Source: an uncultured Anaerolineaceae bacterium (lineage in GTDB: Bacteria > Chloroflexota > Anaerolineae > Anaerolineales > Anaerolineaceae). From it: DNA of 26,103 bases. The DNA is taken from the NCBI GenBank assembly GCA_964444335.1, contig CAYUGV010000005.1, forward strand, positions 1 to 26,103. The letters run 5' to 3'. The notes beneath the pieces were generated by a model, which saw only the letters and a list, made by a program, of their open reading frames with translations, searched no databases and was not told where the DNA came from. The translations under genes were made by a program, and so were the position numbers. Below are positions 3,281-19,993 of this stretch, one piece after another; the first letter of the stretch is position 1, and the number at the start of each line of letters is the position of its first letter.

Positions 3281-3876
3281 TCGGACCTGCCCTCCACGTC
3301 TTTGACGATGAAATAGCAGCCAACAAGCGCGAGGCTCAAATTAACAGCGGTGAAAAGCGCTTCGAGCACCCGCGAGAACTCCAGGCTTGCATATAGCAAT
3401 TCGAATCCTGAGAGAAACGTCAGTAAACCAATAACCAGGTAGAGAGGTTCGGTAATGGTGCCCATCTGGAACAAGCCAAAGAAGACCAATCCCAGGCTGG
3501 CAGTGAGGAGAATTTGACTGCTTTGTGGAAAAACAGATTGCTGCATTCCGGATGCGACCAAGTAACTGATCAGAACAAGCAGAATAGCGATTGTCCCGCG
3601 AAAGACTTCTCCGGAAGAAAGGCGTCGACGTTTACGGATTGACTCGACCAAACCTGAAGAAACCAGGGTCATATAGAGCATGACGCTGACCATCAGTCCA
3701 ACGATCAGTTTGATCCCGGCAAGCATCGGAGAGCGAACCTCAAGAATAACCAAAAAAATGCAAGTATATTGCAGCGCCAAAGCAAGCAGGTTCAGCGCCC
3801 ATTGACGCCTCACCAGGTTGATCGCCGCGGCAAGCAAGAGGACAGCAACTGCGATAATGTGCATTGTCTCGTTCAT
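3277..3876 (-). CDS. HyfE-like (NuoJ/K-related) small membrane protein (~199 aa)
   Basis: About 6-7 TM segments. The C-terminal GLFQMGTITEPLYLVIGLLTFLSGFELL resembles the HyfE/NuoK-like segment. Start reassigned from 3936 to the ATG at 3876 (MNETMHII), which forms an ATGA overlap with the upstream stop. Confidence 0.55.
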   Translation of the reverse strand: MNETMHIIAVAVLLLAAAINLVRRQWALNLLALALQYTCIFLVILEVRSPMLAGIKLIVGLMVSVMLYMTLVSSGLVESIRKRRRLSSGEVFRGTIAILLVLISYLVASGMQQSVFPQSSQILLTASLGLVFFGLFQMGTITEPLYLVIGLLTFLSGFELLYASLEFSRVLEALFTAVNLSLALVGCYFIVKDVEGRSE

Positions 3877-5486
3877 GGTTGACCAACCCTTGTATAGATC
3901 AGGATTGCCATGACCAAAAGGAAGAATATGGACCAAAGGACACCGGCTTCACCCTCGAGTACCTGTCGGAAAAAGCCCGCAACATCACCCAACCGCGCAA
4001 AGAGCCAGCGCGCGATCGCGTAAACCCAATCCAGGCTGAAGACGACACGCAAAGCGTTCAGAACTTGATGCCCCAATCGATAGAAAGGAATTTTTGCCTT
4101 GAAACCTTCGCTGGTAAGTTGCAACCCGATTCTATTGGTGATGACACCGCCCACCAAAACCAATCCGATACTGGCAACGCTTCCCCACCAAACACCAATG
4201 GTGAGCACATCCGGCCAACCAACCAGGTTCAGCACCAATATGGTTTGGATAATGAGGATCAGACCAAGCGGGTAAGTGATGCGGGCATACTTTTCCAGGC
4301 CAGTGACGGTGCTGTTGGCTTCGAGTATGTAACGCAGGTAACCACCCACCAGCATCGCATGGCAAATGATCATCACAATGCCAGGCAGGTTTACCCCGTT
4401 TCCAAGTACCGCGCTCCAACCTGAAGCTGCCAGTGTGTAAGGAACGCCCAAAAGTCCGATCAATCCCAACAGGGGGATGAAACGTACTCTACGGATAGGG
4501 GGATCGAATAAAAAAAGGACACCACCGGTCAGAAGCAGCGCCAACCCCCAAACCCGGCTTTGGGCAGGTTCTCCGTTGAGGGCAGATCGCAGAGCAAAAG
4601 CCGAAAGCGCCACAATCCAGTAAGGTCTGCCTTCGTTTGTGTTGGCACGAGTGAGCCACATGGCTGAAGCGTAAAGGGCTGCAAGGACGGTCAGGACACT
4701 GATTACCGATACCAGGCTTTGATTCAAAACCAGGATCTCAGAGGGTAAGTGCGCAATTAAAACCAGGGCGGAAACAACCGGAGCTAAGCGCAGCAATAGA
4801 TCGGTTCCGCGCCGAAGCTCCGGGATATCCTGAACCATAAGGTTCAGAGGCAGCACTCCCAATCGCAATCCGGCTGCAACAAGGAAGAGCAAGCTGGCGG
4901 TTGGGGGAATCTGTGTGAAGTCCAACCCAGCGGTCACTTGCCAACCTACCGCAGTCGCAGCAACCAGGACGAACGTGCTGATCAATCTCACGCCATAGAC
5001 AGTGGTCACTTTTCCGTTTGCCCCTGGACTGCGGAGAAAATTGAGGACGTAAATCATCTCCACCAAGTCTGTTACCGCCCAGGCAATTGCCATAGTTAGC
5101 GGTCCTCTTGCCATGACAGAAACAAGGTTCAAGCCAGTCAGCGCCAGTGCGGCAGCCCAATTGGTGGGAGAGGTGTTGGAGGAAGCCCGGCTGGAATCAG
5201 TCAGGATCACGGCGATGCACAACGCCAGGATGGCAACCATGTAATGCCAGTTGATGTAATCAATGCGGAAGGCAATCACGGTATGGTAGAGGGATTCAGG
5301 CAGCCAGCGGATCAGTTCTACTTCCATTGGTAGGTAAAGCCTCAGGAAAAATGTTCCGAGCCAGGCAAGGGCAGCGCCGGCAATTGCGATGATCCAGGAG
5401 CGCGCAAAGTTTGGCTTGACTGCCTGGCTGATGGTCAGGGCGATGGCAGGAAGCCATAATAAGCCAAATATTCCAATCAGGATCAT
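3873..5486 (-). CDS. NuoL/MrpA/HyfB-like membrane protein, strongly degenerate (537 aa)
   Basis: About 15 TM segments. FRIDYINW (N-terminal 'F.lD.ls' motif), AAGLRLGVLPL (TM7 motif with K>R) and C-terminal LDWVY...EGEAGVLW resemble the NuoL lateral helix and final TM. Confidence 0.6.
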   Translation of the reverse strand: MILIGIFGLLWLPAIALTISQAVKPNFARSWIIAIAGAALAWLGTFFLRLYLPMEVELIRWLPESLYHTVIAFRIDYINWHYMVAILALCIAVILTDSSRASSNTSPTNWAAALALTGLNLVSVMARGPLTMAIAWAVTDLVEMIYVLNFLRSPGANGKVTTVYGVRLISTFVLVAATAVGWQVTAGLDFTQIPPTASLLFLVAAGLRLGVLPLNLMVQDIPELRRGTDLLLRLAPVVSALVLIAHLPSEILVLNQSLVSVISVLTVLAALYASAMWLTRANTNEGRPYWIVALSAFALRSALNGEPAQSRVWGLALLLTGGVLFLFDPPIRRVRFIPLLGLIGLLGVPYTLAASGWSAVLGNGVNLPGIVMIICHAMLVGGYLRYILEANSTVTGLEKYARITYPLGLILIIQTILVLNLVGWPDVLTIGVWWGSVASIGLVLVGGVITNRIGLQLTSEGFKAKIPFYRLGHQVLNALRVVFSLDWVYAIARWLFARLGDVAGFFRQVLEGEAGVLWSIFFLLVMAILIYTRVGQP

Positions 5487-5508: not shown

Positions 5509-6924
5509 TCAAAGAATTTCGCCTGCCTGGCGATGAATAAAGCGTCCTTCGCCAGCTTTACCGAACCAGTTTTGACCGTCAACGATCAATTTTCCTCGCA
5601 AAAAGACTTTGACAGGGTAACCACGCAGTTTCCAACCTTCATATAAATTATAGTCTGTGCGGTGGTGCGCCCAAGCCAGCCCATAGTCCAACTCTTTTTC
5701 CGGATTCCACAAGGTGATATCCGCATCCGATCCTTCGGCGAGAGTGCCTTTTTTGGGATAGAGACCAAAGATCCGGGCAGGATTGGTAGCGGTCAATTCC
5801 ACAAAGCGGTTCGGGGTGATGCGGCCGGTGTTAACAGCATGGGTCCAGAAAACCGGCAAGCGGTCTGCTAACCCAGGCAGGCCATTGGGAATAAGAGTGA
5901 AGTTTTCTTTGCCAAGTTCTTTTCCCGGAATGGCAATTTCCCTGCCTTCATAAACGATTGGCTTTCTGCCATTGAAGAAGAACGGACAATGATCGGTCGC
6001 CAGGACCTGGATGGTACCATCCAGCAGGCCTTGCCAGAGCCCTTGCTGGTCAACTGGCTTGCGCATAGGCGGTGAGCAGATCCATTTTGCGCCGTCAGGG
6101 CGTTTGAGGTCGTCTTCGGTGAAAAAGAGATATTGAGGGCAAGTCTCACCCATGGCAGGGACTGCATGTTTGCGGGCGTATGCAAGCTGATCCACCTCAC
6201 CAGCCACGTTCATATGAACAAGGTAAAGGGGTGAATCTGCCTGGGCTGCCAGGGCAGCTGCACGCAAGCTAGCTTCCACCTCGCCCCAGGCAGGTCGGGT
6301 GCGGGCATGCTGGATGGGAGCAGTTTTTCCAGCAGCGAGCGCTTCTGCCACCAGGATGTCGATCACATCCCCATTTTCAGCATGGACCATGGTGAGCAGA
6401 TTATTTTTTCCACCGATCCGCATGACCTTGAAGATATTACCGTCATCCAACCGCAGTCGGCCGTTATAAGCGGTGAAAACCTTCATGCTGGTGACACCCA
6501 ATCGGGGCAGGTCAGGAAGTTCTTCAGCGACCTGTTCGTCGAAATGAGTGATGTTCATGTGAAAACTGTAATCGATGCTGGTTTTTGGGTCCGCCATGGC
6601 ACGATGCCGCGCGATATTTTCTGCGAGGCTGACAGGCTCCTGTGAAACAAAATCGATCATGGTGGTAGTGCCGCCAAAGGCAGCCGCTTTTCCACCAGTG
6701 TAATGATCATCCGCGGAAATCGTACCAAACATTGGCAGATCCAGGTGTACGTGCGGGTCCACGCCGCCGGGGAGGACTAAAAGACCGCTGGCGTCAACAA
6801 TTGCTGCGTCAGGGTCTACGATACGTTCATCGATCCGGCGTATGATCTCATCCTCCACCAGCAAATCCGCCTTGCGGGTCGTTTGCGCGGTGACAATCGT
6901 TCCATTCTTGATGAGCGTTTTCAT
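5509..6924 (-). CDS. hydA: Dihydropyrimidinase / D-hydantoinase (HyuA/HydA family)
   Basis: PGGVDPHVH (HxH), GGTTT, carboxylatable Lys in SMKVF, HAENG, CSPPMR, ATDHCPF, PNGLPG. Confidence 0.93.
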   Translation of the reverse strand: MKTLIKNGTIVTAQTTRKADLLVEDEIIRRIDERIVDPDAAIVDASGLLVLPGGVDPHVHLDLPMFGTISADDHYTGGKAAAFGGTTTMIDFVSQEPVSLAENIARHRAMADPKTSIDYSFHMNITHFDEQVAEELPDLPRLGVTSMKVFTAYNGRLRLDDGNIFKVMRIGGKNNLLTMVHAENGDVIDILVAEALAAGKTAPIQHARTRPAWGEVEASLRAAALAAQADSPLYLVHMNVAGEVDQLAYARKHAVPAMGETCPQYLFFTEDDLKRPDGAKWICSPPMRKPVDQQGLWQGLLDGTIQVLATDHCPFFFNGRKPIVYEGREIAIPGKELGKENFTLIPNGLPGLADRLPVFWTHAVNTGRITPNRFVELTATNPARIFGLYPKKGTLAEGSDADITLWNPEKELDYGLAWAHHRTDYNLYEGWKLRGYPVKVFLRGKLIVDGQNWFGKAGEGRFIHRQAGEIL

Positions 6925-6930
6925 AAAACC

Positions 6931-7497
6931 TCACTTTTTCGCGGAAGTAATGCCGCTCAATAAAGCCAACAAGGTTGGATCCAGGGGAATTTCCGGCAGG
7001 GGAGCCGCATTGTAGGCTTCGCTCCGCGATGCGCGCTCTCGCAGCGCCGCCCAGAGGACTGGTCGTTCCTGGTCGTGTACAGGCAGGTCGCCCAGTTCTT
7101 TCGCATCCCGAACGTGCCGCATGGTCGTGTAGAAGAAGGTCACACGTTTCCAATTGCCGGCGGGAATGGGCTTGGGTAGTTCGATCAGACCGCCCAGTTG
7201 AAGCTTGAAATACTCTTCATTTGCCCTGGGGTGGTCCGGTTGGTCGCGAAAGAGTTGATCACGGGTGGTCAGTTCATGCCCAATGATCGGCGCCAGCCAT
7301 CTGATCTGCCAGCGTTCCCTGGCACCAAAGCTGCCAGTCTGATAGAGCGCCAGGTAGTCGACAGCAATCACCTTGGGGGCGTTTTTCAGCGGAATGCGAT
7401 ACCAGCCCAGAAGGCGGGCAATGTCGAGATCCCTTTGGTTGGGGATGATCGCCACCAGCACCAGGCTGGTATCGTCAATTGTCTCTAGCGCGCTCAA
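6931..7497 (-). CDS. Conserved hypothetical protein, possibly a stand-alone PUA/EVE-like domain (188 aa, TTG start)
   Basis: AAGGAG SD upstream of TTG at 7497, with 9-nt and 6-nt gaps to its neighbours. Motifs LVAI..N.RD..IA...GWYRIP, DYLALYQT..F, GHEL..R.QLF.D.PDHPRA.E.Y.K.QLG, W.RVTF..T. The fold call is from recall, not a search. Confidence 0.75.
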   Translation of the reverse strand: MSALETIDDTSLVLVAIIPNQRDLDIARLLGWYRIPLKNAPKVIAVDYLALYQTGSFGARERWQIRWLAPIIGHELTTRDQLFRDQPDHPRANEEYFKLQLGGLIELPKPIPAGNWKRVTFFYTTMRHVRDAKELGDLPVHDQERPVLWAALRERASRSEAYNAAPLPEIPLDPTLLALLSGITSAKK

Positions 7498-7506
7498 ATG
7501 GCTCCT

Positions 7507-8976
7507 TTAGAGCTCAACCTTCGCCTTGTGGTTGAACTCCTCGATCAAGGCATCGATCTCAGGCTGCTGGGCCTGGACTTCGAGCCAATAATCCGGGTCA
7601 TACCATTGGTCCATGATCTCGCTGTAGGTGCGTCCCTGCTGTTCAACCCAGGTGTAATACTTCAGGTTGTGGATGCGTTGGCGCTCGCGATAACCAAGCT
7701 CTTCCATATAATCGGTGGTAACACCTTGCAGGTAGCGGGCTTCGTCGGCGATGGCATTTTCCTTGCTGTACTCGCCGAATTCTTCGTGCATCTCGATCAG
7801 GCGGCTCTGATAGAGTTCCATCGAGTCAGTCAGAACGGTGAGGACAATATCTTTCTCAGTCAATTCGTTGTACTTGGCGAATTTGATGGCGGAGAGCAGG
7901 TTGGAGATGCTGGAGAATCCCAGCAGGTCGAGCTGATTGACGAAATCGGCGTCGAAGCCAGAGTCGATTAGATGCTGTTTACCTGCAGGCTCATTGAAGA
8001 GACGCGCAAGGTTAACCACTGCGTTGTCATCGATGGCTGTGACGAAGTCAGTGTTCTTCACATTATGTACCCAGGGGACGTGCTTGTCACCAATGCCTTC
8101 GATGCGGTGCGCGCCAAAACCGTTGTTGAGCAGGGTTGGGCACTGCAGCGCTTCACTCGCGATGATCTTCATACCGGGGAATTGCTGCTTGAGGTAGTCG
8201 CCCGTGGCGATCGTACCAGCAGAGCCGGTTGCAGACGCGAAACCAGCGACGTGACCTTTTTCATCCAAAAGCTTGCGCGCTACTTGCTCCATGGCGTTGC
8301 CTGTGATCAGATAATGCCAAAGGTAATTGCCAAATTCCTCGAACTGGTTGAAGATCATCAGATCCTCGCCGCTACGGCGGAGTTCCCAGCATTTATCAAA
8401 GATTTCCTTGACGTTTGATTCAGTGCCTGGTGTGGCGATGACTTCATCTGCCACATTACGCAGCCACTCAAAGCGTTCCTTGCTCATGCCTTCCGGCAGA
8501 ATGGCAACAGATTTACAGGCAAGAAGATGCGAGTCATACGCACCACCACGGCAGTAGTTGCCGGTGGAGGGCCAGACTGCTTTTTGGGTGGTGGGGTCAA
8601 ACTGACCAGTCACGAGGCGCGGCACAAGGCAGCCAAAGGCAGCGCCAACCTTGTGGACTCCGCAGGGGAACCACTTGCCCACCAGGGCAACCACCCGGGC
8701 TTTGGTGCCGGTGAAACTGGAGGGGAACTCGAGGTAGTTGACATCACCAAACAGACCGCCAAACGGTTTGGGTTCATTGTGCCAGGTGATGCGGAACAGA
8801 TTCAGAGGGTGCAGATCCCAAAGCCCGATCTCTTTCAGCCGGTTTTGGATGTCGGCGGGCACCAACGAGGGGTCGCGTTGCTGCGCCAGGGTGGGGATGA
8901 TGATCTTGCGTTCACGTACACGCTGCAGGGTGCGTTCGAGACGGTCTTGCATAATGGTTAAGTCAATTCTTGTCAT
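7507..8976 (-). CDS. Fold-type II PLP-dependent enzyme (PALP; 'subunit beta' family of unknown substrate), 489 aa
   Basis: KWFPCGVHKVGA (Schiff-base Lys), WPSTGNYCRGGA, SATGSAGT phosphate loop, HRIEGIG, terminal TDS. About 150 aa longer than CysK-type enzymes. SD AGAGGA. Confidence 0.85.
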   Translation of the reverse strand: MTRIDLTIMQDRLERTLQRVRERKIIIPTLAQQRDPSLVPADIQNRLKEIGLWDLHPLNLFRITWHNEPKPFGGLFGDVNYLEFPSSFTGTKARVVALVGKWFPCGVHKVGAAFGCLVPRLVTGQFDPTTQKAVWPSTGNYCRGGAYDSHLLACKSVAILPEGMSKERFEWLRNVADEVIATPGTESNVKEIFDKCWELRRSGEDLMIFNQFEEFGNYLWHYLITGNAMEQVARKLLDEKGHVAGFASATGSAGTIATGDYLKQQFPGMKIIASEALQCPTLLNNGFGAHRIEGIGDKHVPWVHNVKNTDFVTAIDDNAVVNLARLFNEPAGKQHLIDSGFDADFVNQLDLLGFSSISNLLSAIKFAKYNELTEKDIVLTVLTDSMELYQSRLIEMHEEFGEYSKENAIADEARYLQGVTTDYMEELGYRERQRIHNLKYYTWVEQQGRTYSEIMDQWYDPDYWLEVQAQQPEIDALIEEFNHKAKVEL

Positions 8977-8997
8977 GGTTGGATTCCTCTGATCTGT

Positions 8998-9969
8998 TTA
9001 TTTTTCTTCTACCCGATCCAGCCGGGTGGGGTCGAGGGTCTTTTCGGGTCCCTCGGCAACAATGTAAAGTGGACGACCTTTCGCTTCGTCGTAAATACGA
9101 CCGATGTACTCTCCGAGGATGCCCATGCCGATCAGCAGGATGCCTGCCAGGAAGATCATGGTCAGCCAGGTTGCCAGCACATATGTGAGGTCAAAGTGGT
9201 TAAAAACTGCCAACCCAAGGTAAACCAGCAGCAGGATCACGCTGAGAGCAACCAGGACGATACCGCCAGTGGTCAGCATTTGAAGCGGAAAAGTCGAAAA
9301 ACCGGTCACGGCGTTCATTGCCAGACGGATCATTTTCTTGAGAGGATAGTGGGTCTGCCCGGCATGACGCGCGGCACGTTTGTATTCCACGCCAATCTGC
9401 CTGAAGCCCACCCAGGCACCCATGCCACGCAGGATGCGGTTGCGTTCGCGCATCTGGTTAATAATGTTCAGTGCCTGGCGGTCGATCAGGCGAAAATCGC
9501 CGGTATTGAGCGGCATTTTGACATCGGTGATCTTGTAAATCAGCTTATAAAAGAGCGAGGCCGTGGTCAGCTTGAACCAGCTTTCCCCTTCGCGCTCGGT
9601 GCGCACTGCGTAAACGATTTGGTAGCCTTCACGCCATTTTTTTATCAAATCAAGGATCACTTCCGGTGGATCCTGCAAGTCCGCGTCGATAATAACGACT
9701 GATTGTCCCCGACTGTAATCCATGCCGGCAGTCACGGCGATTTGGTGCCCGAAATTCCGGGCAAAGATGATCGGGCGTACGCGTGAATCCTGAGAAGCAA
9801 GCTTACGCATGACATCCGTGGAGCCGTCCGAGCTGCCGTCATCCACCAGGATCAATTCCCACTCTTCGCCAGTCTGGTTCAACACTTCGCTGACGCGGGC
9901 GTAGAGCAGGGGGAGATTCTCGAGTTCGTTGTAAATTGGGGCTATGATGCTGAAGACAGGATCAGACAT
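8998..9969 (-). CDS. GT2 polyprenol-phosphate glycosyltransferase (GtrB/YkcC/ArnC-like)
   Basis: P.YNE, VDDGS.DGS, RNFGHQ.A..AG, DADLQDPP, GDFRL.DR, two C-terminal TMs, GEYIGRIY.E.K.RP.Y. Overlaps the upstream gene by 8 nt with SD GGAGGT. Confidence 0.92.
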   Translation of the reverse strand: MSDPVFSIIAPIYNELENLPLLYARVSEVLNQTGEEWELILVDDGSSDGSTDVMRKLASQDSRVRPIIFARNFGHQIAVTAGMDYSRGQSVVIIDADLQDPPEVILDLIKKWREGYQIVYAVRTEREGESWFKLTTASLFYKLIYKITDVKMPLNTGDFRLIDRQALNIINQMRERNRILRGMGAWVGFRQIGVEYKRAARHAGQTHYPLKKMIRLAMNAVTGFSTFPLQMLTTGGIVLVALSVILLLVYLGLAVFNHFDLTYVLATWLTMIFLAGILLIGMGILGEYIGRIYDEAKGRPLYIVAEGPEKTLDPTRLDRVEEK

Positions 9970-11218
9970 GGAGCACCTCCTTTAGTTGTTTCAATGTTGG
10001 CTCAATGATCGGGGCAGGCACTACGGCTCGCATGACGGCATTGACGTCTTTCAGCCCGCTGCCAGTGCAAAGTACCAGGGCGGGTTCGTCTGGGTGATGC
10101 AGACCTAGCCGGATGGCTGCCTGGAGCCCGGCATATGCCGCAGCGGCAGCCGGTTCCACGAAAAGGCCTGCTTTACCAAGTATCGGGATGGCTTGGAGGA
10201 TCTCCTGGTCTGAAACGGTCAGGAAGTACCCGCCGCTCTGCTTAACCCGTTTGAGTGCACGGAGTCCATCCCGCGGCAGGTCCACGCTGATGCTGTCCGC
10301 GACGGTTTTTGCGCTGACCGGTTCGATAACATCTTTGCCAGCCGTAAAAGCATTGAAAATGGCCGCGGAGCCTTCAGCCTGCACGCCCACCAGCCTGGGT
10401 AATCTTTCAATCCAGCCCAGAGCCAGCAAGTCGGCAAAGCCTTTGGCCACGCCGCTGAGGATGTTGCCATCACCCACCGGGATGAAAACGGTCATGTTTT
10501 GATCAAATCGATCGCGATTTCGCAACACCTGTTCCCAGATCTCGAGCCCAGCCGTCTTTTTGCCTTCCACGGTGTAGGGGTTGTAACCAGTGTTGCGGTT
10601 ATACCAACCGAGTTCATCTGAAGCTTCGATACTCAGGTCAAACGCCTGGTCATAGGTTCCATCCACCAACACAACCTTTGCGCCAAACGTCAATAATTGT
10701 GCCACCTTGGCGGGTGGAGCGCTGCGCGGTGCAATAATGACCGCTTTTTTACCCACACTGGCAGCCATGCAAGCCATGGCTGCGCCGGCGTTTCCAGTCG
10801 AGGCTGCTATGATGGTCTCAATGTCCGCCTCAATCGCGCGGGCGATCACCAGGGCGCTGGCACGATCCTTGAAAGACGCGCTTGGATTACGGCTCTCGTC
10901 TTTAATCCATAATTCACGCAACCCAAGGGATTTTTGAAGGGATTCAGGGCGGTAGACCGGAGTCCAACCCACCTGGTGCAAGGGTATCTGATTGAAACCG
11001 GGATCAGGAGCGGCAAGCAGTGGGGCGTAACGCCATATTGAGGATTCTTTGCTCCTCAATATGGCAGATTGATCAATTTCAACAGGATTTTCTTCAAAGC
11101 TGAAGTGGGTATCCAGGTTGCCACCACAGGTCAGACAGTTATAGGTGACCTCGTCGGGCGCAAAACACTGCCCACATTCAGAGCATTGAAAGTAGCTAAG
11201 CGGCATACTGTTTCCCAT
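9962..11218 (-). CDS. Threonine synthase-like PLP enzyme with N-terminal CxxC..CxxC zinc ribbon
   Basis: CSECG..CLTCGG, WRY..LL, G.TP, KDESRNPSASFKDR, ASTGNA, NPY..EG.KT, PVGDG, EPAAAAA.AG, TGSGLKD. No hom/thrB nearby, so the thrC symbol is withheld. The start may be the second Met (MPLSY). Confidence 0.85.
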   Translation of the reverse strand: MGNSMPLSYFQCSECGQCFAPDEVTYNCLTCGGNLDTHFSFEENPVEIDQSAILRSKESSIWRYAPLLAAPDPGFNQIPLHQVGWTPVYRPESLQKSLGLRELWIKDESRNPSASFKDRASALVIARAIEADIETIIAASTGNAGAAMACMAASVGKKAVIIAPRSAPPAKVAQLLTFGAKVVLVDGTYDQAFDLSIEASDELGWYNRNTGYNPYTVEGKKTAGLEIWEQVLRNRDRFDQNMTVFIPVGDGNILSGVAKGFADLLALGWIERLPRLVGVQAEGSAAIFNAFTAGKDVIEPVSAKTVADSISVDLPRDGLRALKRVKQSGGYFLTVSDQEILQAIPILGKAGLFVEPAAAAAYAGLQAAIRLGLHHPDEPALVLCTGSGLKDVNAVMRAVVPAPIIEPTLKQLKEVLHV

Positions 11219-11230
11219 TAAGTTGCGCAG

Positions 11231-11280
11231 GGATAAGGGGTGAATTTTAGAGTGCTCAAGTTCAACTCACCCGCTTATCC
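11231..11280. other. Long imperfect inverted repeat in the arcC to thrC-like intergenic region
   Basis: GGATAAG-GGGTGA (11231-11243) pairs with TCACCC-g-CTTATCC (11267-11280): 13 bp with one bulge. No U-tract on either side. Confidence 0.6.
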
Positions 11281-11318
11281 AGTTCAATTTCTACTATTCG
11301 TTTATTCTACCTTACCGA

Positions 11319-12266
11319 CTAAGGCACAATCCAGGTGCCGGTTTTGCCTTCGAGGGCGTCCTTGATGTGTTCAGGGTCGGTGATCAGAGCCTTCTTACCG
11401 CCCTGGTCCATGAATTTCAGGATGGCTTGGATCTTTGGCAGCATCGAGCCTTTGGCGAACTGACCTTCAGCCAGGTATGCACGGGCTTCAGCAACTGTCA
11501 TCTGGTCGAGCCACTTTTGGTCCGGCTTGTTGAAGTTGATCGCCACTTTTTCGACCGCGGTGCTGATCAGGAACAGATCGGCTTTGATCATGCTGGCAAG
11601 AATGGCTGAGCCAAAATCCTTGTCGATTACAGCTTCCACGCCGGTGAGATCGCCATTTTCAAGCTGCATCACCGGGATGCCGCCGCCGCCAACCGCCACG
11701 ACCACAAATCCATGGTCAATCAAGCTGCGGATTGCGTCTGCTTCAACAATGGTTTGGGGGATGGGGGAAGGGACAACACGGCGCCAACCGCGACCGGCAT
11801 CTTCCACCATGGTCCAGCCTTCTTTGGACATCTTCTCTTTTGCGGCTGCCTCATCCATGAAGGAACCGATGGGTTTGGTTGGGTTCTGGAAAGCAGGGTC
11901 GTTACGATCGACGATGGTCTGCGTGATCACAGTGGCAGCTTGCTTCTCGATCCCGCGCAAGCGGAATTCGTTGTGCAGGGCTTGCTGGAACATATAGCCG
12001 ATGGCACCCTGGGTGTCCGCGCCACAATAATCCAGCGGAACTTCGTGCAGCTCGTGGGACGCGATTTCAGAGCGGCGCAAGATAAAGCCTACCTGTGGAC
12101 CGTTTCCGTGCGTGACAACCACATCCCAGCCATCAATGATCATGCTGGCGATGTGCTTCATCGTTTCCACTGCAGCCTGATACTGATCTGGAACAGTCTG
12201 ATGGTTCTTGTCTTTGATTAATGCGTTACCGCCTACTGCAACTACTGCCAAACCTTTGCTTTGCAT
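11319..12266 (-). CDS. arcC: Carbamate kinase (315 aa)
   Basis: VVAVGGNAL, THGNGPQVG, A.TQG.IGY, NPTKPIG.F, EDAGRGWRRVVPSP.P, GGGGIPV, EAVIDKD, GSMLPK. Start reassigned to the ATG at 12266 (MQSKG), which has an AGGAGA SD. Confidence 0.96.
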   Translation of the reverse strand: MQSKGLAVVAVGGNALIKDKNHQTVPDQYQAAVETMKHIASMIIDGWDVVVTHGNGPQVGFILRRSEIASHELHEVPLDYCGADTQGAIGYMFQQALHNEFRLRGIEKQAATVITQTIVDRNDPAFQNPTKPIGSFMDEAAAKEKMSKEGWTMVEDAGRGWRRVVPSPIPQTIVEADAIRSLIDHGFVVVAVGGGGIPVMQLENGDLTGVEAVIDKDFGSAILASMIKADLFLISTAVEKVAINFNKPDQKWLDQMTVAEARAYLAEGQFAKGSMLPKIQAILKFMDQGGKKALITDPEHIKDALEGKTGTWIVP

Positions 12267-12303
12267 ATAAAGAATCTCCTCGGAAGTCCTATTATTATTT
12301 GGT

Positions 12304-13689
12304 TTAAACTTGTAACAGGCGTTTGGTCGCCTGGTTGTGTTTCTCAATTTGTTTGTGAACATCAAGTGTAGTCAGGTGACCTTCCCTCACGATAACCTTA
12401 CCTCCGATGACGGTCCAATTAGCCTTAACTGGTTGGCAGAAGAGGATCGTGGCAAGGGGGTCGGTGATCGCGCCGGCATAGTCCAGTTGGTCCAGGTCCA
12501 TGGCGAAGAAATCCGCGCACTTTCCAACCTCGAGCGAACCGATATCTTTACGGCCGAGCACCGAAGCGCCGCCGCGAGTGGCAATCGAGAGCGCCTGGCG
12601 GGCGGTCATCAGGGGAGGGGCGTCTGGCGCGGAACGTGAAGCGCCTTTGATGCCGCTGTTGAGACGCGCGAGCAATAACGCCTGCCGGACTTCATTTAGC
12701 ATGTGCGAACCGTCGTTGCTGGCAGAGCCATCCACGCCAAGCCCCAGCTTTACTCCGCGAGCCAACATGTTCATTACCGGCGCGATGCCGGAAGCAAGCC
12801 TCATATTGGAGGATGGGCAGTGAGCCACGCCGCAACCATGGTGGGCGTAAAGATCCATTTCGGCTTCGTTCACCCAGACAGAATGGGCAAACCAAACGTC
12901 ATCCCCAATCCAGTCGACCGTCTGCATGTAAGCCACTGGCTTGTGTCCGAATTTCGCAAGGCAGAAGTCGTCTTCGTCTTCGGTCTCGGCCAGATGGGTG
13001 TGGAGGTGGACGCCATATTTACGTGCCATGGCTGCCGACTCACGCATCAGTTCGCCTGTCACGCTGAAGGGGGAACACGGCGCGAGGACAATCTGAAGTT
13101 TGGACCCGGGTTTGGGGTCATGGTAGCGCTGGATCAGGCGTTCGCTATCTTTGAGGATGTTCTCTTCGGTGTCCACGACGGAATCCGGTGGAAGCCCGCC
13201 CTGCGACTGCCCAAGGCTCATTGATCCGCGCGAAGCGTGCAGGCGCACTCCGATCTCTGCAGCGGCAGAGATCTCATCGTCCAGCTTGCTGCCATTGGGG
13301 AATAGGTAGAGGTGGTCCGAAGCGGTCGTGCAGCCTGAAAGTGCGAGCTCTGCCAGGGCGGTTTGCGTGCTGGTGAAGATATCTTCCGGGTTCATGCGCG
13401 CCCAGATCGGGTAGAGCGTGGTCAGCCAATTGAAAAGGTTGGCGTCCTGCGCAGCAGGCAAAGCGCGAGTCAGGGTCTGATAAAAGTGGTGATGGGTGTT
13501 AACAAGACCCGGCAGAACCACATGGTGCCGCAGGTCGAGCACTTCGTCCGCAGTTTGTGGCAAGTCAGCCTGGCTTCCGATCTGTTCGATGAAACCATCC
13601 CGGCAGAAAATTGCGGCATTTTTCAATTCGCGGTCTTGCCCGTCCATAGTGACGATCAGGTCAGCGTTTTTGACGAGTAGGGTCGGCAT
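12304..13689 (-). CDS. 8-oxoguanine deaminase / AtzB-like metal-dependent amidohydrolase
   Basis: PGLVNTHHHFYQTLTRA, LF.WL..LYPIW, GCTT.SDHLY, RGSMSLG.SQGGLPPD, APCSPFSV, HTHLAET, AHCPSSNMRLASG, GVDGSASND. These match the Pseudomonas PA0142-type 8-oxoguanine deaminase family. Confidence 0.88.
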   Translation of the reverse strand: MPTLLVKNADLIVTMDGQDRELKNAAIFCRDGFIEQIGSQADLPQTADEVLDLRHHVVLPGLVNTHHHFYQTLTRALPAAQDANLFNWLTTLYPIWARMNPEDIFTSTQTALAELALSGCTTASDHLYLFPNGSKLDDEISAAAEIGVRLHASRGSMSLGQSQGGLPPDSVVDTEENILKDSERLIQRYHDPKPGSKLQIVLAPCSPFSVTGELMRESAAMARKYGVHLHTHLAETEDEDDFCLAKFGHKPVAYMQTVDWIGDDVWFAHSVWVNEAEMDLYAHHGCGVAHCPSSNMRLASGIAPVMNMLARGVKLGLGVDGSASNDGSHMLNEVRQALLLARLNSGIKGASRSAPDAPPLMTARQALSIATRGGASVLGRKDIGSLEVGKCADFFAMDLDQLDYAGAITDPLATILFCQPVKANWTVIGGKVIVREGHLTTLDVHKQIEKHNQATKRLLQV

Positions 13690-13704
13690 GAAAACCTCCA
13701 GGGA

Positions 13705-14586
13705 TTATTTCTGGTCAGCCAATTCAGCTGCGTGAAGGGTGTTTTTGAGCAGCATGGCAATGGTCATTGGTCCAACACCGCCAGGGACCGGGGTGATGGC
13801 ACCGGCAACTTCTGCCACTTCATCAAAAGCCACGTCGCCCACAAGGCGATAGCCTTTTTTGGCGCTGGCGTCTTCTTTTTGATTAATGCCCACATCGATT
13901 ACGATTGCACCCGGCTTCACCCATTCTTGCTTGACGAACTCGGGCTGACCAATGGCTGCCACAAGGACGTCCGCTTGCCGTACCACCGAAGGCAAGTCGC
14001 GCGTGCGGGAATGGCAGATCGTGACGGTGGCGTTGGCTTTGACGAGCAGCAGCGCGACTGGCATGCCCACGATATTGGAACGTCCAAGCACTACGGCGTT
14101 CGCGCCGCTTAGTTGCGCGCCGGCTTTCTCCAAGAGCACCATGCAGCCGGCAGGCGTGCAGGGGATAAAGACAGGTTCACGCCCTTTTTGCGCAAGGCGT
14201 CCGATGTTGACCGGGTGGAAACCATCGACATCCTTGTTAAGGTCGATCGCGGAGAGCACTTTTTCCTCGTCCAGGTGATGGGGGAGCGGCAGTTGCACGA
14301 GGATGCCGTTGACGGCAGGATCGGCATTGAGTTTCTGCACAAGCGTTTCAACTTCCTCCTGGGTGGCATCTTCGGGCAATTTGTACCCAAAGGAGTTGAT
14401 GCCAACTTCGGCGCAAGCCTTTTGCTTATTGCGCACATATACTTGCGAAGCCGGATTTTCGCCTACCAATACAGTCGCAAGACCTGGCGCTGAAAGACCC
14501 TTTTCCAGGCGGGTTTCGACCGCCGCCTTGACTTCGTCACGGATTTCCTGCCCGATTTGTTTTCCATCAATAATATTCGCGCTCAT
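13705..14586 (-). CDS. folD: Bifunctional methylene-THF dehydrogenase/cyclohydrolase FolD
   Basis: [78 protein letters not shown]. Confidence 0.98.
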
Positions 14587-14603
14587 GTCATCCTCCGAGG
14601 GTC

Positions 14604-14628
14604 ATTATACCCGAAAGGAAGGTATAAT
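14604..14628. promoter_or_regulatory. Back-to-back divergent -10 boxes (folD / udk) forming an 8-bp inverted repeat
   Basis: ATTATACC (14604-14611), a 9-nt spacer, then GGTATAAT (14621-14628). Each arm carries a TATAAT pointing outward. Only 48 nt separate the two start codons. Confidence 0.6.
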
Positions 14629-14634
14629 TTACGC

Positions 14635-15264
14635 ATGCCCACATCTTCCACTCCGTTAATTATCGGCATCGCCGGCAGTTCAGGCTCCGGCAAAACAACC
14701 ATGGCCCAGAGCATCCTTGAAGCGATTGGAAGGGACAAAATTGCTTTCCTGCCGCATGACGCTTATTACCGTGACCAGAGCGAAAAGACCTTTGAGGAAC
14801 GACTTCAGGTTAATTACGATCACCCTGATTCGCTCGAAACGGAGCTTCTGATCAAGCACATCCAGGCGCTAAAACGAGGTGAATCGGTAGATCTGCCGGT
14901 CTATGACTTCAAACAGCATACTCGCGCAGCAGCCACTGTTCACGTTGTTCCCAAACCGATCATCCTGGTGGAGGGCATCCTGATCTTCGTTGAACCGAAA
15001 CTGCGCAACTTATGCTCCATGAAACTTTTTGTGGACACGGATCAGGACATCTGTTTCATCCGACGTCTCCAACGGGATGTGACTGAACGCGGTCGTACGG
15101 TTGACTCGGTCATCAATCAATATATGAAAACAGTTCGTCCGAGTTTCATTGAATTTGTAGAACCCACAAAACGATTTGCTGATGTGATCATTCCTGAGGG
15201 CGGTCATAACACGGTAGCAGCAGAAATGGTCATCTCACGCCTTAAAGCTCTGCTGCCAGACTAA
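14635..15264 (+). CDS. udk: Uridine kinase (209 aa)
   Basis: IGIAGSSGSGKTT, D.YY, NYDHP.S.E, PVYDF..H.R, VEGIL, FVDTD.D...RRL.RD..ERGR, VRP....F.EPTK..AD.IIPEGG.N. Start reassigned to the ATG at 14635, because the longer ORF overlaps folD. Confidence 0.96.
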   Translation: MPTSSTPLIIGIAGSSGSGKTTMAQSILEAIGRDKIAFLPHDAYYRDQSEKTFEERLQVNYDHPDSLETELLIKHIQALKRGESVDLPVYDFKQHTRAAATVHVVPKPIILVEGILIFVEPKLRNLCSMKLFVDTDQDICFIRRLQRDVTERGRTVDSVINQYMKTVRPSFIEFVEPTKRFADVIIPEGGHNTVAAEMVISRLKALLPD

Positions 15265-15266
15265 TC

Positions 15267-15815
15267 GTGGAAGAAAAACCCAAATTCACCAAGCCGCAGC
15301 TCTTCTTCCGTTTGCTGCTGCTGATTTTGTTGATAGTGGGCACTGTCTTATTACTCCTCAATCGCGATAAAATCCAACACCTTGAAGTCTACGGATATCC
15401 TGGAATCTTCCTGATCTCGCTACTTTCAAATGCCACGATCCTGGTTCCGCTTCCCGGGGTGATGATCACCTCTGCTATGGCGATGGTGTTCAGCCCGTTC
15501 TGGGTGGCGATCGCGTCTGGGGCAGGGGCAGCACTGGGCGAACTTTCGGGATACCTGGTGGGGTTTGGTGGGCAACCCATGCTCGAAAAATCCGAAAGAG
15601 TCAAAAAGTTGACCGCTTGGATGCAGCGCAATCAGTCCTGGACTATCTTTCTGCTGGCCCTGGTTCCCAACCCGTTGTTCGACATGGCAGGTTTTATGGC
15701 CGGGGCTTCCCGGATGCCTGTCTGGAAGTTTCTCTTCTTTTGCCTGATGGGAAAAATTGCTAAGATGCTCGTATTTGCCTACCTTGGAGCGGGCATTTTC
15801 AGCGTCTTTAGATAA
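15267..15815 (+). CDS. DedA/VTT (SNARE-associated) membrane protein
   Basis: GTG start 2 nt after the udk stop. N-terminal TM, 'P.PG', G..GA.LGEL.GY..G, FL.ALVPNPLFDMAG..AGA..M....F......GK. Confidence 0.88.
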   Translation: MEEKPKFTKPQLFFRLLLLILLIVGTVLLLLNRDKIQHLEVYGYPGIFLISLLSNATILVPLPGVMITSAMAMVFSPFWVAIASGAGAALGELSGYLVGFGGQPMLEKSERVKKLTAWMQRNQSWTIFLLALVPNPLFDMAGFMAGASRMPVWKFLFFCLMGKIAKMLVFAYLGAGIFSVFR

Positions 15816-15871
15816 TAGACCCCCAAACGAGGTTTTGGATAAGTTTCCACACCAAAGAATTGATGCCTGTG

Positions 15872-15877
15872 TATAAT
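15872..15877 (+). promoter_or_regulatory. -10 box (TATAAT) 6 nt upstream of the rsmG ATG; probable leaderless transcript
   Basis: TATAAT-catgct-ATG, with no SD upstream. Confidence 0.55.
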
Positions 15878-15883
15878 CATGCT

Positions 15884-16612
15884 ATGAGTGATTGGATTGA
15901 ATTAACCGAGAAACATCTTGGAATTACGCTGTCTGACTTACAGCGGTTCCAGTTCCAGGTTGTGCAGGAAGAATTGTTGTTATGGAACGAAAAAATCAAC
16001 TTGACAGCGATCAAGGACATTAAAGGAATCCAGGAAAAACACTTTTTTGATTCTCTTACCTGCTTCATGGGTTTTGAAGAGTGGCCTGAGAGTATGATTG
16101 ATGTGGGCAGTGGGGCTGGATTCCCTGGATTACCGGTCAAGATCGTCAACCCGCAAATGCGGTTGACACTGGTGGAATCCGTCGATAAGAAGGCCAATTT
16201 CTGCCGTCACATCGTAGAGGAATTAGGTCTGACGGATGTTACCGTGCTCTCAAAGCGCGCTGAAGAAGTGGGGCGGTTGCCTGAGCACCGTGAAGCTTAT
16301 GATATCGCCATCGCGCGCGCGGTTGCTCCAGCACCAACCCTGGCGGAGTATCTTTTGCCTTTGGTCAAAGTGGGCGGACGTTGCCTGATGCAGAAGGGAA
16401 CAAGAGGTCCGGAAGAGGTAATACAGGCTGGCAGAATCGTTGACCTTTGCGGCGGTGAGATCAGTGACCTGTTTCACCTGGACTTTGAAGGCATCGAAGG
16501 TGAAGGCAACCTGATCATTATCGATAAGCTTCGCCAAACACCCGACGTATTTCCCCGGGCCGTCGGCATTCCTGCCAAGAAACCAATCCTTACTTTTAAG
16601 GGCTGGAAGTAA
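15884..16612 (+). CDS. rsmG: 16S rRNA m7G527 methyltransferase RsmG (GidB), 242 aa
   Basis: WNEKINLTAI, HFFDSL, IDVGSGAGFPG.P, L.ES..KK..F, RAE, ARAVA, P.VFPR..GIP.K.P. Start reassigned to MSDWIEL. Confidence 0.96.
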   Translation: MSDWIELTEKHLGITLSDLQRFQFQVVQEELLLWNEKINLTAIKDIKGIQEKHFFDSLTCFMGFEEWPESMIDVGSGAGFPGLPVKIVNPQMRLTLVESVDKKANFCRHIVEELGLTDVTVLSKRAEEVGRLPEHREAYDIAIARAVAPAPTLAEYLLPLVKVGGRCLMQKGTRGPEEVIQAGRIVDLCGGEISDLFHLDFEGIEGEGNLIIIDKLRQTPDVFPRAVGIPAKKPILTFKGWK

Positions 16613-16657
16613 CCAGTCGCATCCAATTGGGTTAATTTCTACTAAACAGATCAGCTT

Positions 16658-17674
16658 ATGAAAACAGAGATTACATTCTTTTGTGAATTACGCGCCGAAG
16701 CGTTGAAAAAACTATTCGAAGACCGCTTCGTTTTCGACGACTTGAAGACGCTTAACGCCGGCCTCTCGCTGGGAATACTGGATCTTTCCCCCGAGCGCGC
16801 GAATGTTATCAAAAAACTCAATCGGCTCGACATTCCAGTGACTGCCTGGCTGCTGTTGCCAGAGGAACAGGGTTACTGGTTCAATCTTGGCAACTACACT
16901 GAGGCTGCGGCGCGCTACCAGGAGTTCAAAGCCTGGAGTGAGCAAAACCAGCTGCAGTGGGCTGCGGTGGGGTTGGATATTGAAGCCGATATCAACGAGA
17001 TGAAGGAATTTGCCAATGAACGCGGAGCGGTCATTCAAAAAGCCCTCAAACGGCTGAGAGATACCAAAGCCTATCGAACTGCAAAAACAGCGTACACAGC
17101 GTTGGTCGCGCAGATCCATGCCGATGGATACATGGTGGAAAGTTATCACTTTCCACTGATCGAGGATGATCGGGATGCCGGATCTACGGTTGTTCAGCGA
17201 GCCGCCGGGTTGGTGGATGTGGCTGTTGATCGGGAAGTGCTGATGTTGTATTCGAGCTTCTTTAGACCACATGGGCATTCGATTTTGTGGAGCTACGCTC
17301 AAAAAGCCCAGGCAATCGGGATTGGCAATACCGGTGGCGGCATCCAGGCTGGCGCTCTTGAGAATGTGCCCTATTTGACTTGGGATGAATTCGCGACCGA
17401 CCTGCGCCTGGCACGCCGCAGCGGCAAGCCGATTTATGTTTTTAGCCTTGAAGGCTGTGTTAAACAAGGGTTTTTGCCACGCCTGGTCACTTTTGACTGG
17501 CAGGCAGAGGTCGATTTGCCCACGACCGCGTTGGTGTCTGCCGGCAGGAGTAGTCTGCATGGGTTGCTTTGGTTACTGGAGCGACCAATTGTGATCCTGG
17601 CAGGATTAGTGGGTGTGATTGGCACCCTGATGATGATCAAATCTCACGGAAAATCAAAGAAAAACGAAAAATAG
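16658..17674 (+). CDS. Hypothetical protein, alternating beta/alpha (TIM-barrel/glycoside-hydrolase-like) with C-terminal TM anchor
   Basis: Periodic beta/alpha pattern, AVGLDIE acidic motif, MLYSS, IYVFSLEG. C-terminal IVILAGLVGVIGTLMMI is followed by a Lys-rich tail. Confidence 0.7.
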   Translation: MKTEITFFCELRAEALKKLFEDRFVFDDLKTLNAGLSLGILDLSPERANVIKKLNRLDIPVTAWLLLPEEQGYWFNLGNYTEAAARYQEFKAWSEQNQLQWAAVGLDIEADINEMKEFANERGAVIQKALKRLRDTKAYRTAKTAYTALVAQIHADGYMVESYHFPLIEDDRDAGSTVVQRAAGLVDVAVDREVLMLYSSFFRPHGHSILWSYAQKAQAIGIGNTGGGIQAGALENVPYLTWDEFATDLRLARRSGKPIYVFSLEGCVKQGFLPRLVTFDWQAEVDLPTTALVSAGRSSLHGLLWLLERPIVILAGLVGVIGTLMMIKSHGKSKKNEK

Positions 17675-17740
17675 TTGCTTTTTGGAAGACCATATGGTCA
17701 AATTCCTCGCGCGGCCTGGAGACCGGCGAGAACTTTTAGG

Positions 17741-19944: not shown

Positions 19945-19993
19945 GATTTCTTAAATGTATCACAGGCTTGAAAAACGTCAGCCCGGGGTACAC

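Follow-up and report, generated by a model that had tools for sequence, protein, structure and literature searches.

A gene string of an uncultured Anaerolineaceae bacterium that probably represents a reduced variant of the anaerobic reductive urate cluster

What does a bacterium degrade with a purine-type deaminase, a carbamate kinase, a hydantoinase and two pyridoxal phosphate (PLP) enzymes encoded side by side? We asked this of a stretch of 26,103 nucleotides (nt) from an uncultured Anaerolineaceae bacterium, called the 26-kb window or simply the window throughout, in which eight tightly packed genes fill positions 5509-14586 of the minus strand. A first-pass annotation had interpreted this gene string as a rearranged, ATP-conserving nucleobase fermentation that is related to the E. 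coli/clostridial anaerobic urate cluster, has non-orthologous terminal steps and includes a tetrahydrofolate (THF)-linked one-carbon branch. Judging by gene content and conserved gene context, we consider it probable that these genes are a lineage-specific, reduced copy of the anaerobic reductive urate (2,8-dioxopurine) cluster in its Chloroflexota variant.

All six genes named in that annotation (folD, an 8-oxoguanine-deaminase-family amidohydrolase, a carbamate kinase, two fold-type II PLP enzymes and a HyuA-like hydantoinase) were confirmed with Pfam and NCBIfam, and the outer coordinates of the string were correct. Two more genes had been overlooked: a family 2 glycosyltransferase (GT2, 8998-9969) and an open reading frame (ORF) for a protein of 188 amino acids (u188, 6931-7497). 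From folD to the hydantoinase gene the gaps are 15, 37, 100, -8, 21, 9 and 6 nt. One of the two PLP enzymes, a protein of 489 residues that we call PLP489, is 95% identical to its counterpart in an Anaerolineaceae metagenome-assembled genome (L005 in our numbering of loci), which supports the proposed Anaerolineae origin. The locus occurs in sludge and digester metagenomes.

Close relatives, with PLP489 at 77-95% identity, conserve the whole neighbourhood of the string, including the housekeeping genes udk, rsmG, ksgA, mfd and pth. Because these housekeeping flanks are conserved as well as the string itself, such synteny is uninformative, and we therefore anchored the comparison on PLP489. A search with a six-sequence PLP489 alignment against 185,579 species genomes, one per species, yielded 80 loci; later counts are over 84 genome loci. 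Neighbouring ORFs were clustered and annotated with NCBIfam, and hallmark genes of the urate cluster were counted within 10 kb.

Loci that bear the labels of other phyla or groups encode PLP489 homologues of 63-68% identity; among these labels are Desulfobacteraceae, SAR324, Vallitalea and other Bacillota, Halanaerobiales, Terriglobia, Acidimicrobiia, Opitutales, Polyangiaceae and KSB1. An orthologue of the second PLP enzyme, which resembles threonine synthase (ThrC), is usual in these distant loci (40-48% identical), and carbamate kinase is frequent (47-62%). Around PLP489 we found the hallmarks YgeY (707 bits vs a cutoff of 321; scores are given in this form below), the knotted carbamoyltransferase YgeW (700 vs 453), selenium-dependent xanthine dehydrogenase (Se-XDH, 890 vs 830) and YgfK (1312 vs 835). 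HyuA-like hydantoinases, adenine deaminase and SsnA-like amidohydrolases are also part of the distant clusters, the SsnA-like protein of L060 scoring 387, under the cutoff of 444. Among the 12 loci that carry labels of other phyla and span at least 15 kb, one hallmark or more is present in 10, and two or more in 9. Inside the Anaerolineae, L057 has the order carbamoyltransferase, carbamate kinase, ThrC-like gene, PLP489 and Se-XDH (941 vs 830). Reductases of the YgfK, UacX or F420-dependent luciferase-like monooxygenase (LLM) type are present in L043, L068 and L082. The proposed relationship to the E. coli/clostridial urate cluster is thus supported by a PLP pair that lies embedded in genuine urate clusters of other phyla.

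Counted over the genome loci, the ThrC-like gene accompanies PLP489 in 54 of 84 and carbamate kinase is co-located with it in 35 of 84. Whether the gene set is conserved together therefore has a divided answer: carbamate kinase, the ThrC-like protein and PLP489, often with the hydantoinase, stay together across phyla, an arrangement that exceeds chance for this subset, whereas FolD is confined to close relatives, and GT2 and u188 do not keep to the set across phyla either.

Within the Anaerolineae, relatives have the block found in the window physically coupled to the remaining pathway. The Anaerolineaceae chromosome L043 encodes two carbamoyltransferases and a BMP-family (PnrA-like) ATP-binding cassette (ABC) transporter, followed by the ThrC-like gene, GT2, PLP489, u188 and a hydantoinase 63% identical to that of the window, and then by Nudix, SsnA (533 vs 444), Fno, CofE, CofD, CofC and an LLM-class F420 oxidoreductase. 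The F420 gene set, which includes a nitroreductase-like FbiB part, directly follows SsnA (L043:15838-20655), so that the genes for making this cofactor seem to lie together with the purine cluster. The closest relative beyond the window clade, L049, encodes FolD, an 8-oxoguanine deaminase (681 bits), GntR, YgeY (474 vs 321) and a carbamoyltransferase and, after intervening genes, the ThrC-like protein, GT2, PLP489, u188 and the hydantoinase. In L015 and L037 the order is 8-oxoguanine deaminase, GntR or adenine deaminase, carbamoyltransferases A and B, carbamate kinase, ThrC-like gene, GT2 and PLP489. Modules are scattered among the relatives: carbamate kinase is missing at the locus in L049 and L043, as is the hydantoinase in L054 and L059.

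The two PLP enzymes are central to this comparison. The ThrC-like protein (9962-11218; PF00291) is a fold-type II PLP enzyme with an N-terminal Cys4 zinc ribbon. Its best PDB matches are threonine synthases (145-174 bits), and it is borderline for one threonine synthase model (TIGR00260, 167.6 vs 167.1) and below the cutoff of another (NF006050, 256 vs 303). All four PDB ThrCs compared have the Arg of the ThrC motif NPxR[IL]EGQKT, which corresponds to R160 of the Thermus enzyme, a phosphate-binding residue. The window protein has Thr in its place, and the 48 cluster-linked orthologues without exception have T, M or L.

PLP489 (7507-8976; PF00291, 41.7 bits) has the fold of cysteine synthase (CysK) and cystathionine beta-synthase (CBS) and belongs to an uncharacterised family, for which a full HMMER scan of 1.8 billion representatives returned 338 clusters at E<=1e-30. 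It falls far below the CysK cutoffs (TIGR01139, 90.8 vs 351; TIGR01136, 83.5 vs 344). An AlphaFold2 (AF2) model has a mean predicted local distance difference test score (pLDDT) of 88, and the top Foldseek matches are CysK, CBS and beta-cyanoalanine synthase, with target-normalised template modelling (TM) scores of about 0.8. Helical extensions of about 85 residues at the N-terminus and about 95 at the C-terminus are without PDB counterpart. The PLP lysine (K109), a PSTGN loop and G-S-x-G-T at residues 251-255 are invariant.

Given that the ThrC Arg is missing throughout the ThrC-like clade and that PLP489 falls well short of the CysK cutoffs, neither protein is the biosynthetic enzyme; we considered the two genes as a true thrC and cysK and dropped both assignments on scores and motif. 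Neither is a canonical YgeX, as the first-pass annotation had noted. The ThrC-like protein scores 66 vs 276 against the YgeX model NF006058 and aligns with YgeX at 26-28% identity over about 170-210 residues, PLP489 matches YgeX over 46 residues only, and all alignments of window proteins with YgeX are partial (26-33%). We also considered PLP489 as a selenium delivery protein for Se-XDH. This was dropped, since in L054, L059 and the window PLP489 remains beside lower-pathway genes in the absence of a neighbouring XDH.

One Chloroflexi contig, L085, carries a PLP489-like gene (490 amino acids) in tandem with a 465-amino-acid paralogue of the P0141 type that is 42% identical to PLP489 (L085:8516-11398). 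About 4-10 kb away (15228-21398) lie genes for a CN-hydrolase, a PreT/PreA-like dihydropyrimidine dehydrogenase, a dihydropyrimidinase and a cytosine/purine permease. The family of P0141-type paralogues is large and likewise uncharacterised, and the neighbourhood of the P0141-type paralogue in L086 was uninformative.

In a reciprocal test, we anchored on YgeY in metagenome contigs, a collection separate from the species genomes, and retained the 42 loci of at least 12 kb. YgeX was found in 20 of these loci and a PLP489-like gene in 18, of which 17 also carry the ThrC-like gene; four loci had neither and none had both. This mutual exclusivity was significant (Fisher P = 2e-8) and was so after identical E. 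coli loci were collapsed (P = 1.6e-6). Most of the loci with the pair have it immediately upstream of ygeY, where ygeX stands in canonical clusters and in E. coli, and the association with YgeY reaches a more distant PLP489 subfamily of 33-41% identity. Because the pair occupies the same position beside ygeY and excludes YgeX in YgeY loci, we infer that the ThrC-like/PLP489 pair is a non-orthologous replacement of YgeX, the diaminopropionate ammonia-lyase. The earlier suggestion of non-orthologous terminal steps agrees with these results, given that the pair occurs inside ygeW/ygeY/ssnA/xdh/ygfK clusters of other phyla and that 0 of 42 loci hold both the pair and YgeX.

The reductive urate pathway was resolved in 2025 and presented as an eight-enzyme route that ends in YgeX (bioRxiv 10.1101/2025.04.24.650524; PMC12507026). 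The ThrC-like and PLP489 proteins are unmentioned in either paper. Li et al. scored YgeX by Pfam PF00291 alone (PMC12507026), and because of this their scoring cannot separate the pair from YgeX. Tentatively, and with somewhat less than even confidence, we suggest that the pair is an unrecognised and widespread terminal module of the anaerobic reductive urate pathway, present in about every second YgeY-anchored cluster and not only in the Chloroflexi but also in several other phyla. It would be a two-enzyme substitute for YgeX, perhaps with chemistry unlike the simple deamination of 2,3-diaminopropionate, such as an inversion of configuration and then elimination, or else a beta-elimination or beta-replacement that acts directly on a ureido-amino acid, for example albizziin. 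As part of the same suggestion, many Chloroflexi have two carbamoyltransferases, with which both ureido groups could yield ATP.

We further characterised the remaining catabolic enzymes of the string. The deaminase (12304-13689) scores 673 vs 532 against NF006055, and its PDB matches are 3HPA (574 bits) and 7WW2, annotated as 8-oxoguanine deaminase (530 bits), in agreement with a PA0142-type family member. It is not an SsnA by the models for that enzyme (148 and 137 bits vs 444 and 455), and its identity is 28% with GuaD and 26% with the SsnA of E. coli. In L015, L037 and L049 the deaminase precedes the carbamoyltransferase/carbamate kinase/ThrC-like module. The 8-oxoguanine-deaminase family also acts on guanine and on isocytosine, which it converts to uracil (PMC6186785). 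Family membership makes 8-oxoguanine, guanine, isocytosine and N2,N2-dimethylguanine candidate substrates, and the enzyme is the probable entry point, producing urate from 8-oxoguanine.

The carbamate kinase is of the YqeA/ArcC type (TIGR00746, 392 vs 358; NF009007, 415 vs 266) and is 51% identical to E. coli YqeA. We place it at 11319-12266, giving 315 amino acids from an internal ATG; the longest ORF extends to 12365, and homologues are called at 315 amino acids. The hydantoinase (5509-6924), a D-hydantoinase/dihydropyrimidinase of the HyuA type, scores 507 vs 393 against TIGR02033 (IPR011778) and has D-hydantoinases as its best PDB matches (about 395 bits). It is 40% identical to E. coli HyuA over its full length of 471 residues and probably opens the ring of a ureido-hydantoin intermediate.

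Together, these enzymes suggest the following route. The deaminase would make urate (or xanthine) from 8-oxoguanine (or guanine). Dehydroxylation, reduction and ring opening by SsnA would be carried out by enzymes encoded outside the window, and the hydantoinase would then convert ureidomethyl-hydantoin to 2,3-diureidopropionate. Next, the ureido groups would be removed, in relatives by two carbamoyltransferases or by one together with YgeY, and carbamate kinase would use the carbamoyl phosphate to form ATP. In the last stage the PLP pair would act, in one or two steps, on a C3 amino acid of the 2,3-diaminopropionate type and release pyruvate and ammonia; one of the two proteins might be a racemase or take a ureido-amino acid as substrate. 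FolD and GT2 would be co-transcribed passengers. Such a route would require that the decarbamoylation enzymes and the upper pathway are encoded elsewhere in the genome; otherwise the locus would be a partial module.

How the carbamoyl groups are handled differs among the loci. In the published pathway, YgeW and YqeA make ATP from 2,3-diureidopropionate and YgeY hydrolyses the other ureido group (bioRxiv 10.1101/2025.04.24.650524; PMC12507026). Among the loci we studied, YgeY is missing wherever two carbamoyltransferases occur, and loci with YgeY have only one carbamoyltransferase. This one-or-other pattern agrees with a substrate that has two ureido groups to lose, and it suggests that ATP could be gained from both groups where two transferases are present. 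Tandem carbamoyltransferases stand upstream of the kinase in many Chloroflexi (L015:4618-6660, L037:4267-6419, L054:5607-7585). Transferase A resembles aspartate carbamoyltransferase (TIGR00670, 250 vs 237), and transferase B resembles ornithine carbamoyltransferase, acetylornithine carbamoyltransferase and YgeW and is under all cutoffs; A and B are 29% identical. Sequence conservation is very high in both, and for type B all of the 120 best homologues are at least 82% identical. The segment from the deaminase to the ThrC-like gene can be viewed as a variable decarbamoylation slot, which holds GntR, carbamoyltransferases or YgeY in L015, L037 and L049 and the kinase alone in the window clade.

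Several observations weigh against a urate cluster variant in the window. No carbamoyltransferase, YgeY, SsnA, XDH, YgfK or F420 reductase is present in the 26-kb window. E. coli YgeW, YgeY, YgfK, XdhA, XdhD, YqeB and YqeC had no tblastn match at E<=1e-3 anywhere in it, which upholds the absences of YgeW, YgeY, YgfK and Xdh given in the first-pass annotation over the whole window; the Se-XDH of L060 as tblastn query had no match there either, and window ORFs lack the corresponding Pfam domains. A dearomatising reductase is likewise missing, with no YgfK match and no DHO_dh or Bac_luciferase domain in the window. The reduced arrangement is stable in at least six related genomes with 77-95% PLP489 identity, and six related loci (L001, L003, L005, L039, L088 and L089) have no carbamoyltransferase, YgeY, SsnA or XDH within 10 kb. 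As a weaker point, the long contigs of this clade (0.7-2.3 Mb) are absent among the 120 best carbamoyltransferase B homologues, all of which are at least 82% identical. With neither a transferase nor YgeY at hand, nothing visible at the locus would supply the kinase with carbamoyl phosphate; in this clade the pathway may no longer work or may have taken on another purpose.

The PLP pair and the hydantoinase add to these reservations. The activity of the pair is predicted from gene context, and the co-occurrence statistics are uncorrected for phylogeny. L082 holds both PLP489 and YgeX and has no ThrC-like gene; because both are present there, PLP489 may do something other than the YgeX reaction. 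At this locus PLP489 is directly followed by a genuine YgeX (L082:8574-12656; NF006058, 493 vs 276), no YgeY lies within 10 kb, and it is the only such locus found. The hydantoinase is equidistant from HyuA and from the dihydropyrimidinase of a pyrimidine cluster, and identity did not assign it a HyuA-type or a dihydropyrimidinase-type function. Finally, metatranscriptome contigs show neither an operon nor induction.

A second explanation, which we regard as unlikely, is that the window clade lost the upper pathway and the carbamoyltransferases and repurposed what was left. Carbamate kinase might then serve arginine/carbamoyl-phosphate metabolism, for example, and the hydantoinase and PLP enzymes might act on scavenged hydantoins or amino acids. 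Such a remnant would account for the genes missing from the window and from the six related loci, for the decarbamoylation slot that is filled in L015, L037 and L049 and holds carbamate kinase alone here, and for the clade's absence among the top carbamoyltransferase B homologues. However, the genes are intact and strongly conserved within the clade (carbamate kinase 84-95%, PLP489 77-95%, deaminase 80-96%), and the kept gene order argues for ongoing joint selection. The scattering of modules in relatives, where L049 and L043 are without carbamate kinase and L054 and L059 without the hydantoinase, also makes it plausible that the missing genes lie elsewhere in the genome.

Somewhat less likely again is catabolism of pyrimidines or free hydantoins, in which a dihydropyrimidinase would open dihydrouracil or dihydrothymine and the carbamoyl group would be harvested through carbamate kinase. 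The hydantoinase matches D-hydantoinase/dihydropyrimidinase structures best, passes the cutoff of TIGR02033, which is named dihydropyrimidinase, and is 39% identical to the dihydropyrimidinase of L085, which stands beside PreT/PreA-like genes, a CN-hydrolase and a cytosine/purine permease in a contig that also has a PLP489-like gene. The deaminase family converts isocytosine to uracil, and udk adjoins the string. Yet the window lacks PydA/PreTA and beta-ureidopropionase (PydC): no ORF in it has a DHO_dh/Fer4_20 or CN_hydrolase domain, and the PydB-like enzyme alone is present. Products of the beta-alanine type would leave the fold-type II PLP enzymes without a task, and the cross-phylum neighbours are purine-specific, namely Se-XDH, SsnA, YgfK, adenine deaminase and a BMP-family (PnrA-like) ABC binding protein.

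An unrelated housekeeping run, in which FolD, threonine synthase, cysteine synthase and an arginine-pathway carbamate kinase merely share a strand in a compact genome, would fit the synteny of the whole neighbourhood in close relatives, the interleaved GT2 and unknown gene, the flat metatranscriptome coverage and a promoter/terminator scan no better than shuffled sequence, but is very improbable and already largely refuted by the cross-phylum linkage of carbamate kinase, ThrC-like gene and PLP489, also in compact GntR-headed operons, by the YgeY-anchored test with its mutual exclusion of the pair and YgeX beside YgeY, and by a ThrC-like protein without the ThrC Arg and a PLP489 that scores 91 against a CysK cutoff of 351.

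A reduced copy of the Chloroflexota urate variant is therefore the explanation we favour, and it retains part of the first-pass interpretation. The purine-catabolic assignment stands for the deaminase, carbamate kinase, ThrC-like protein, PLP489 and hydantoinase, whereas ATP conservation, the FolD branch and completeness are not supported. Carbamate kinase is without a carbamoyltransferase at the locus, both in the window and in at least six related genomes, which leaves the label ATP-conserving unsupported. Nor is a complete, rearranged pathway supported: the locus has no SsnA, XDH, reductase or decarbamoylation enzymes and is better described as a reduced Chloroflexota variant.

The THF-linked branch had been proposed from folD, the first gene of the string (13705-14586), which encodes a bifunctional methylene-THF dehydrogenase/cyclohydrolase with both domains (PF00763 and PF02882; NF010785, 420 vs 396; NF008058, 392 vs 355). 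Adjacent folD and deaminase genes occur only in close relatives (L001-L005, L039, L049, L088 and L089). The adjacency amounts to 7 of 84 genome loci (the window clade and L049) and to 1 of 80 metagenome loci, a distant one that corresponds to about the chance rate. folD is also the first gene after the housekeeping block of udk, rsmG, ksgA, mfd and pth. We therefore dropped the one-carbon branch, and FolD is probably a housekeeping passenger.

GT2 is a polyprenyl-phosphate glycosyltransferase of the PgfS/ArnC-like type with C-terminal transmembrane helices (PF00535; under all NCBIfam cutoffs). Its gene separates those of the two PLP enzymes and shares 8 nt with the ThrC-like gene. GT2 holds this position in 36 of 84 loci, all Anaerolineae or Ardenticatenia, and in 0 of 17 loci labelled as other phyla. 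For a catabolic operon this is an odd insertion, though a stable one, and GT2 probably has no part in purine catabolism. For u188 there was no Pfam, NCBIfam or PDB match, also when 22 orthologues were scanned singly, and a single-sequence AF2 model was unusable (pLDDT 43). The protein is restricted to the Chloroflexi and has an invariant motif, G-W-Y-R-x-P. It is found in 39 of 84 loci, usually at most 2 kb downstream of PLP489, and also in loci without any other cluster gene (L010, L013 and L019). u188 may be a partner or regulator of PLP489.

Beyond folD lie udk, which is divergent, and genes for a DedA/VTT protein, rsmG, ksgA, a DUF348/G5 protein, mfd, pth and mscL. The likely start codons of folD and udk (14635-15264, plus strand) are separated by about 48 nt (14587-14634), and because of this short distance the promoters of both genes must overlap coding sequence. 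The longest udk ORF starts at a TTG at 14557 and would overlap folD. Three more ORFs are without family match (16658-17674, plus strand; 24187-24774 and 25580-26095, minus strand); the one of 338 amino acids adjoins rsmG in close relatives too.

Past the hydantoinase gene, on the minus strand, come three membrane proteins (1844-5486), one of them distantly NuoN/MrpD-like, an SMC-like coiled-coil protein of 397 amino acids (593-1786) and the start of selB (3-590), of which the window edge leaves the N-terminal 196 residues only. This order of membrane proteins, coiled-coil protein and selB is kept in 14-16 Anaerolineaceae loci, and the membrane genes are probably co-transcribed passengers. Since SelB is encoded, the genome uses selenocysteine.

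Regulatory signals were not apparent in the window. The scan found 4 promoter-like sites where 9.7 were expected and 18 terminator-like sites where 16.5 were expected, no better than in shuffled sequence. Rfam (E<=0.1) and tRNA scans of the window found nothing, and hence no purine, ZTP or THF riboswitch. In sludge metatranscriptome contigs the region is covered at flat depth, including across the divergent folD/udk junction. One such contig (run X28) joins position 6610 to 11679, skipping 5068 nt, and its shorter arm measures only 21 nt; most likely the assembly fused sequences of different strains into a chimera.

These results bear on how anaerobic purine degradation is recognised. They suggest that a large share of the clusters, in Chloroflexi and several other phyla from sludge, sediment and other environments, ends in the PLP pair, often with two carbamoyltransferases in place of YgeW and YgeY. 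The choice of markers for anaerobic purine degradation in metagenomes changes accordingly, as PF00291 alone conflates YgeX with the pair, and two enzyme families gain a sharply defined set of candidate substrates. The abundant Anaerolineaceae of digesters hold a partial pathway at this locus, which raises the question of whether it is completed by genes elsewhere or reflects cross-feeding on intermediates.

How does the string compare with known systems? The closest is the 2,8-dioxopurine cluster of E. coli (ygeW-xdhD) and C. sporogenes, whose pathway chemistry has been described (bioRxiv 10.1101/2025.04.24.650524; PMC12507026). The window shares with it a HyuA-type hydantoinase (40%) and a YqeA-type kinase (51%), and a purine deaminase adjoins the cluster in both, guaD in E. 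coli. The corresponding block of relatives is linked to YgeY, YgeW-related carbamoyltransferases, SsnA, Se-XDH and YgfK. Unlike that cluster, the window has no XdhD/XdhAC, YgfK, SsnA, YgeW, YgeY or YgeX; the PLP pair stands in place of YgeX, and the deaminase belongs to the 8-oxoguanine-deaminase family and is neither GuaD nor SsnA.

In the uricolytic variant described for Chloroflexota, an F420-dependent luciferase-family reductase is encoded near SsnA (PMC12507026, 'Variants'). L043 agrees with this variant, with SsnA, F420 genes and an LLM F420 oxidoreductase directly after the block that is syntenic with the window. The window clade differs in having no SsnA, F420 genes, two carbamoyltransferases or BMP ABC transporter at the locus. 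A further parallel is phosphorylation of the arginine-deiminase type: in relatives the orthologous carbamate kinase gene has one or two carbamoyltransferase genes immediately upstream, while the window kinase has no adjacent transferase.

The PLP enzymes themselves match ThrC and CysK/CBS in fold, in the PLP lysine and in the ASTGN/PSTGN loops. They differ from these biosynthetic enzymes in their cluster linkage to catabolic genes, in the loss of the ThrC Arg and in the CysK score of 91 vs 351. In comparison with YgeX, two proteins take the place of one and PLP489 has its extra helical extensions; the PLP fold type and the position beside ygeY are the same, and the mutual exclusion implies that the pair and YgeX serve the same pathway step.

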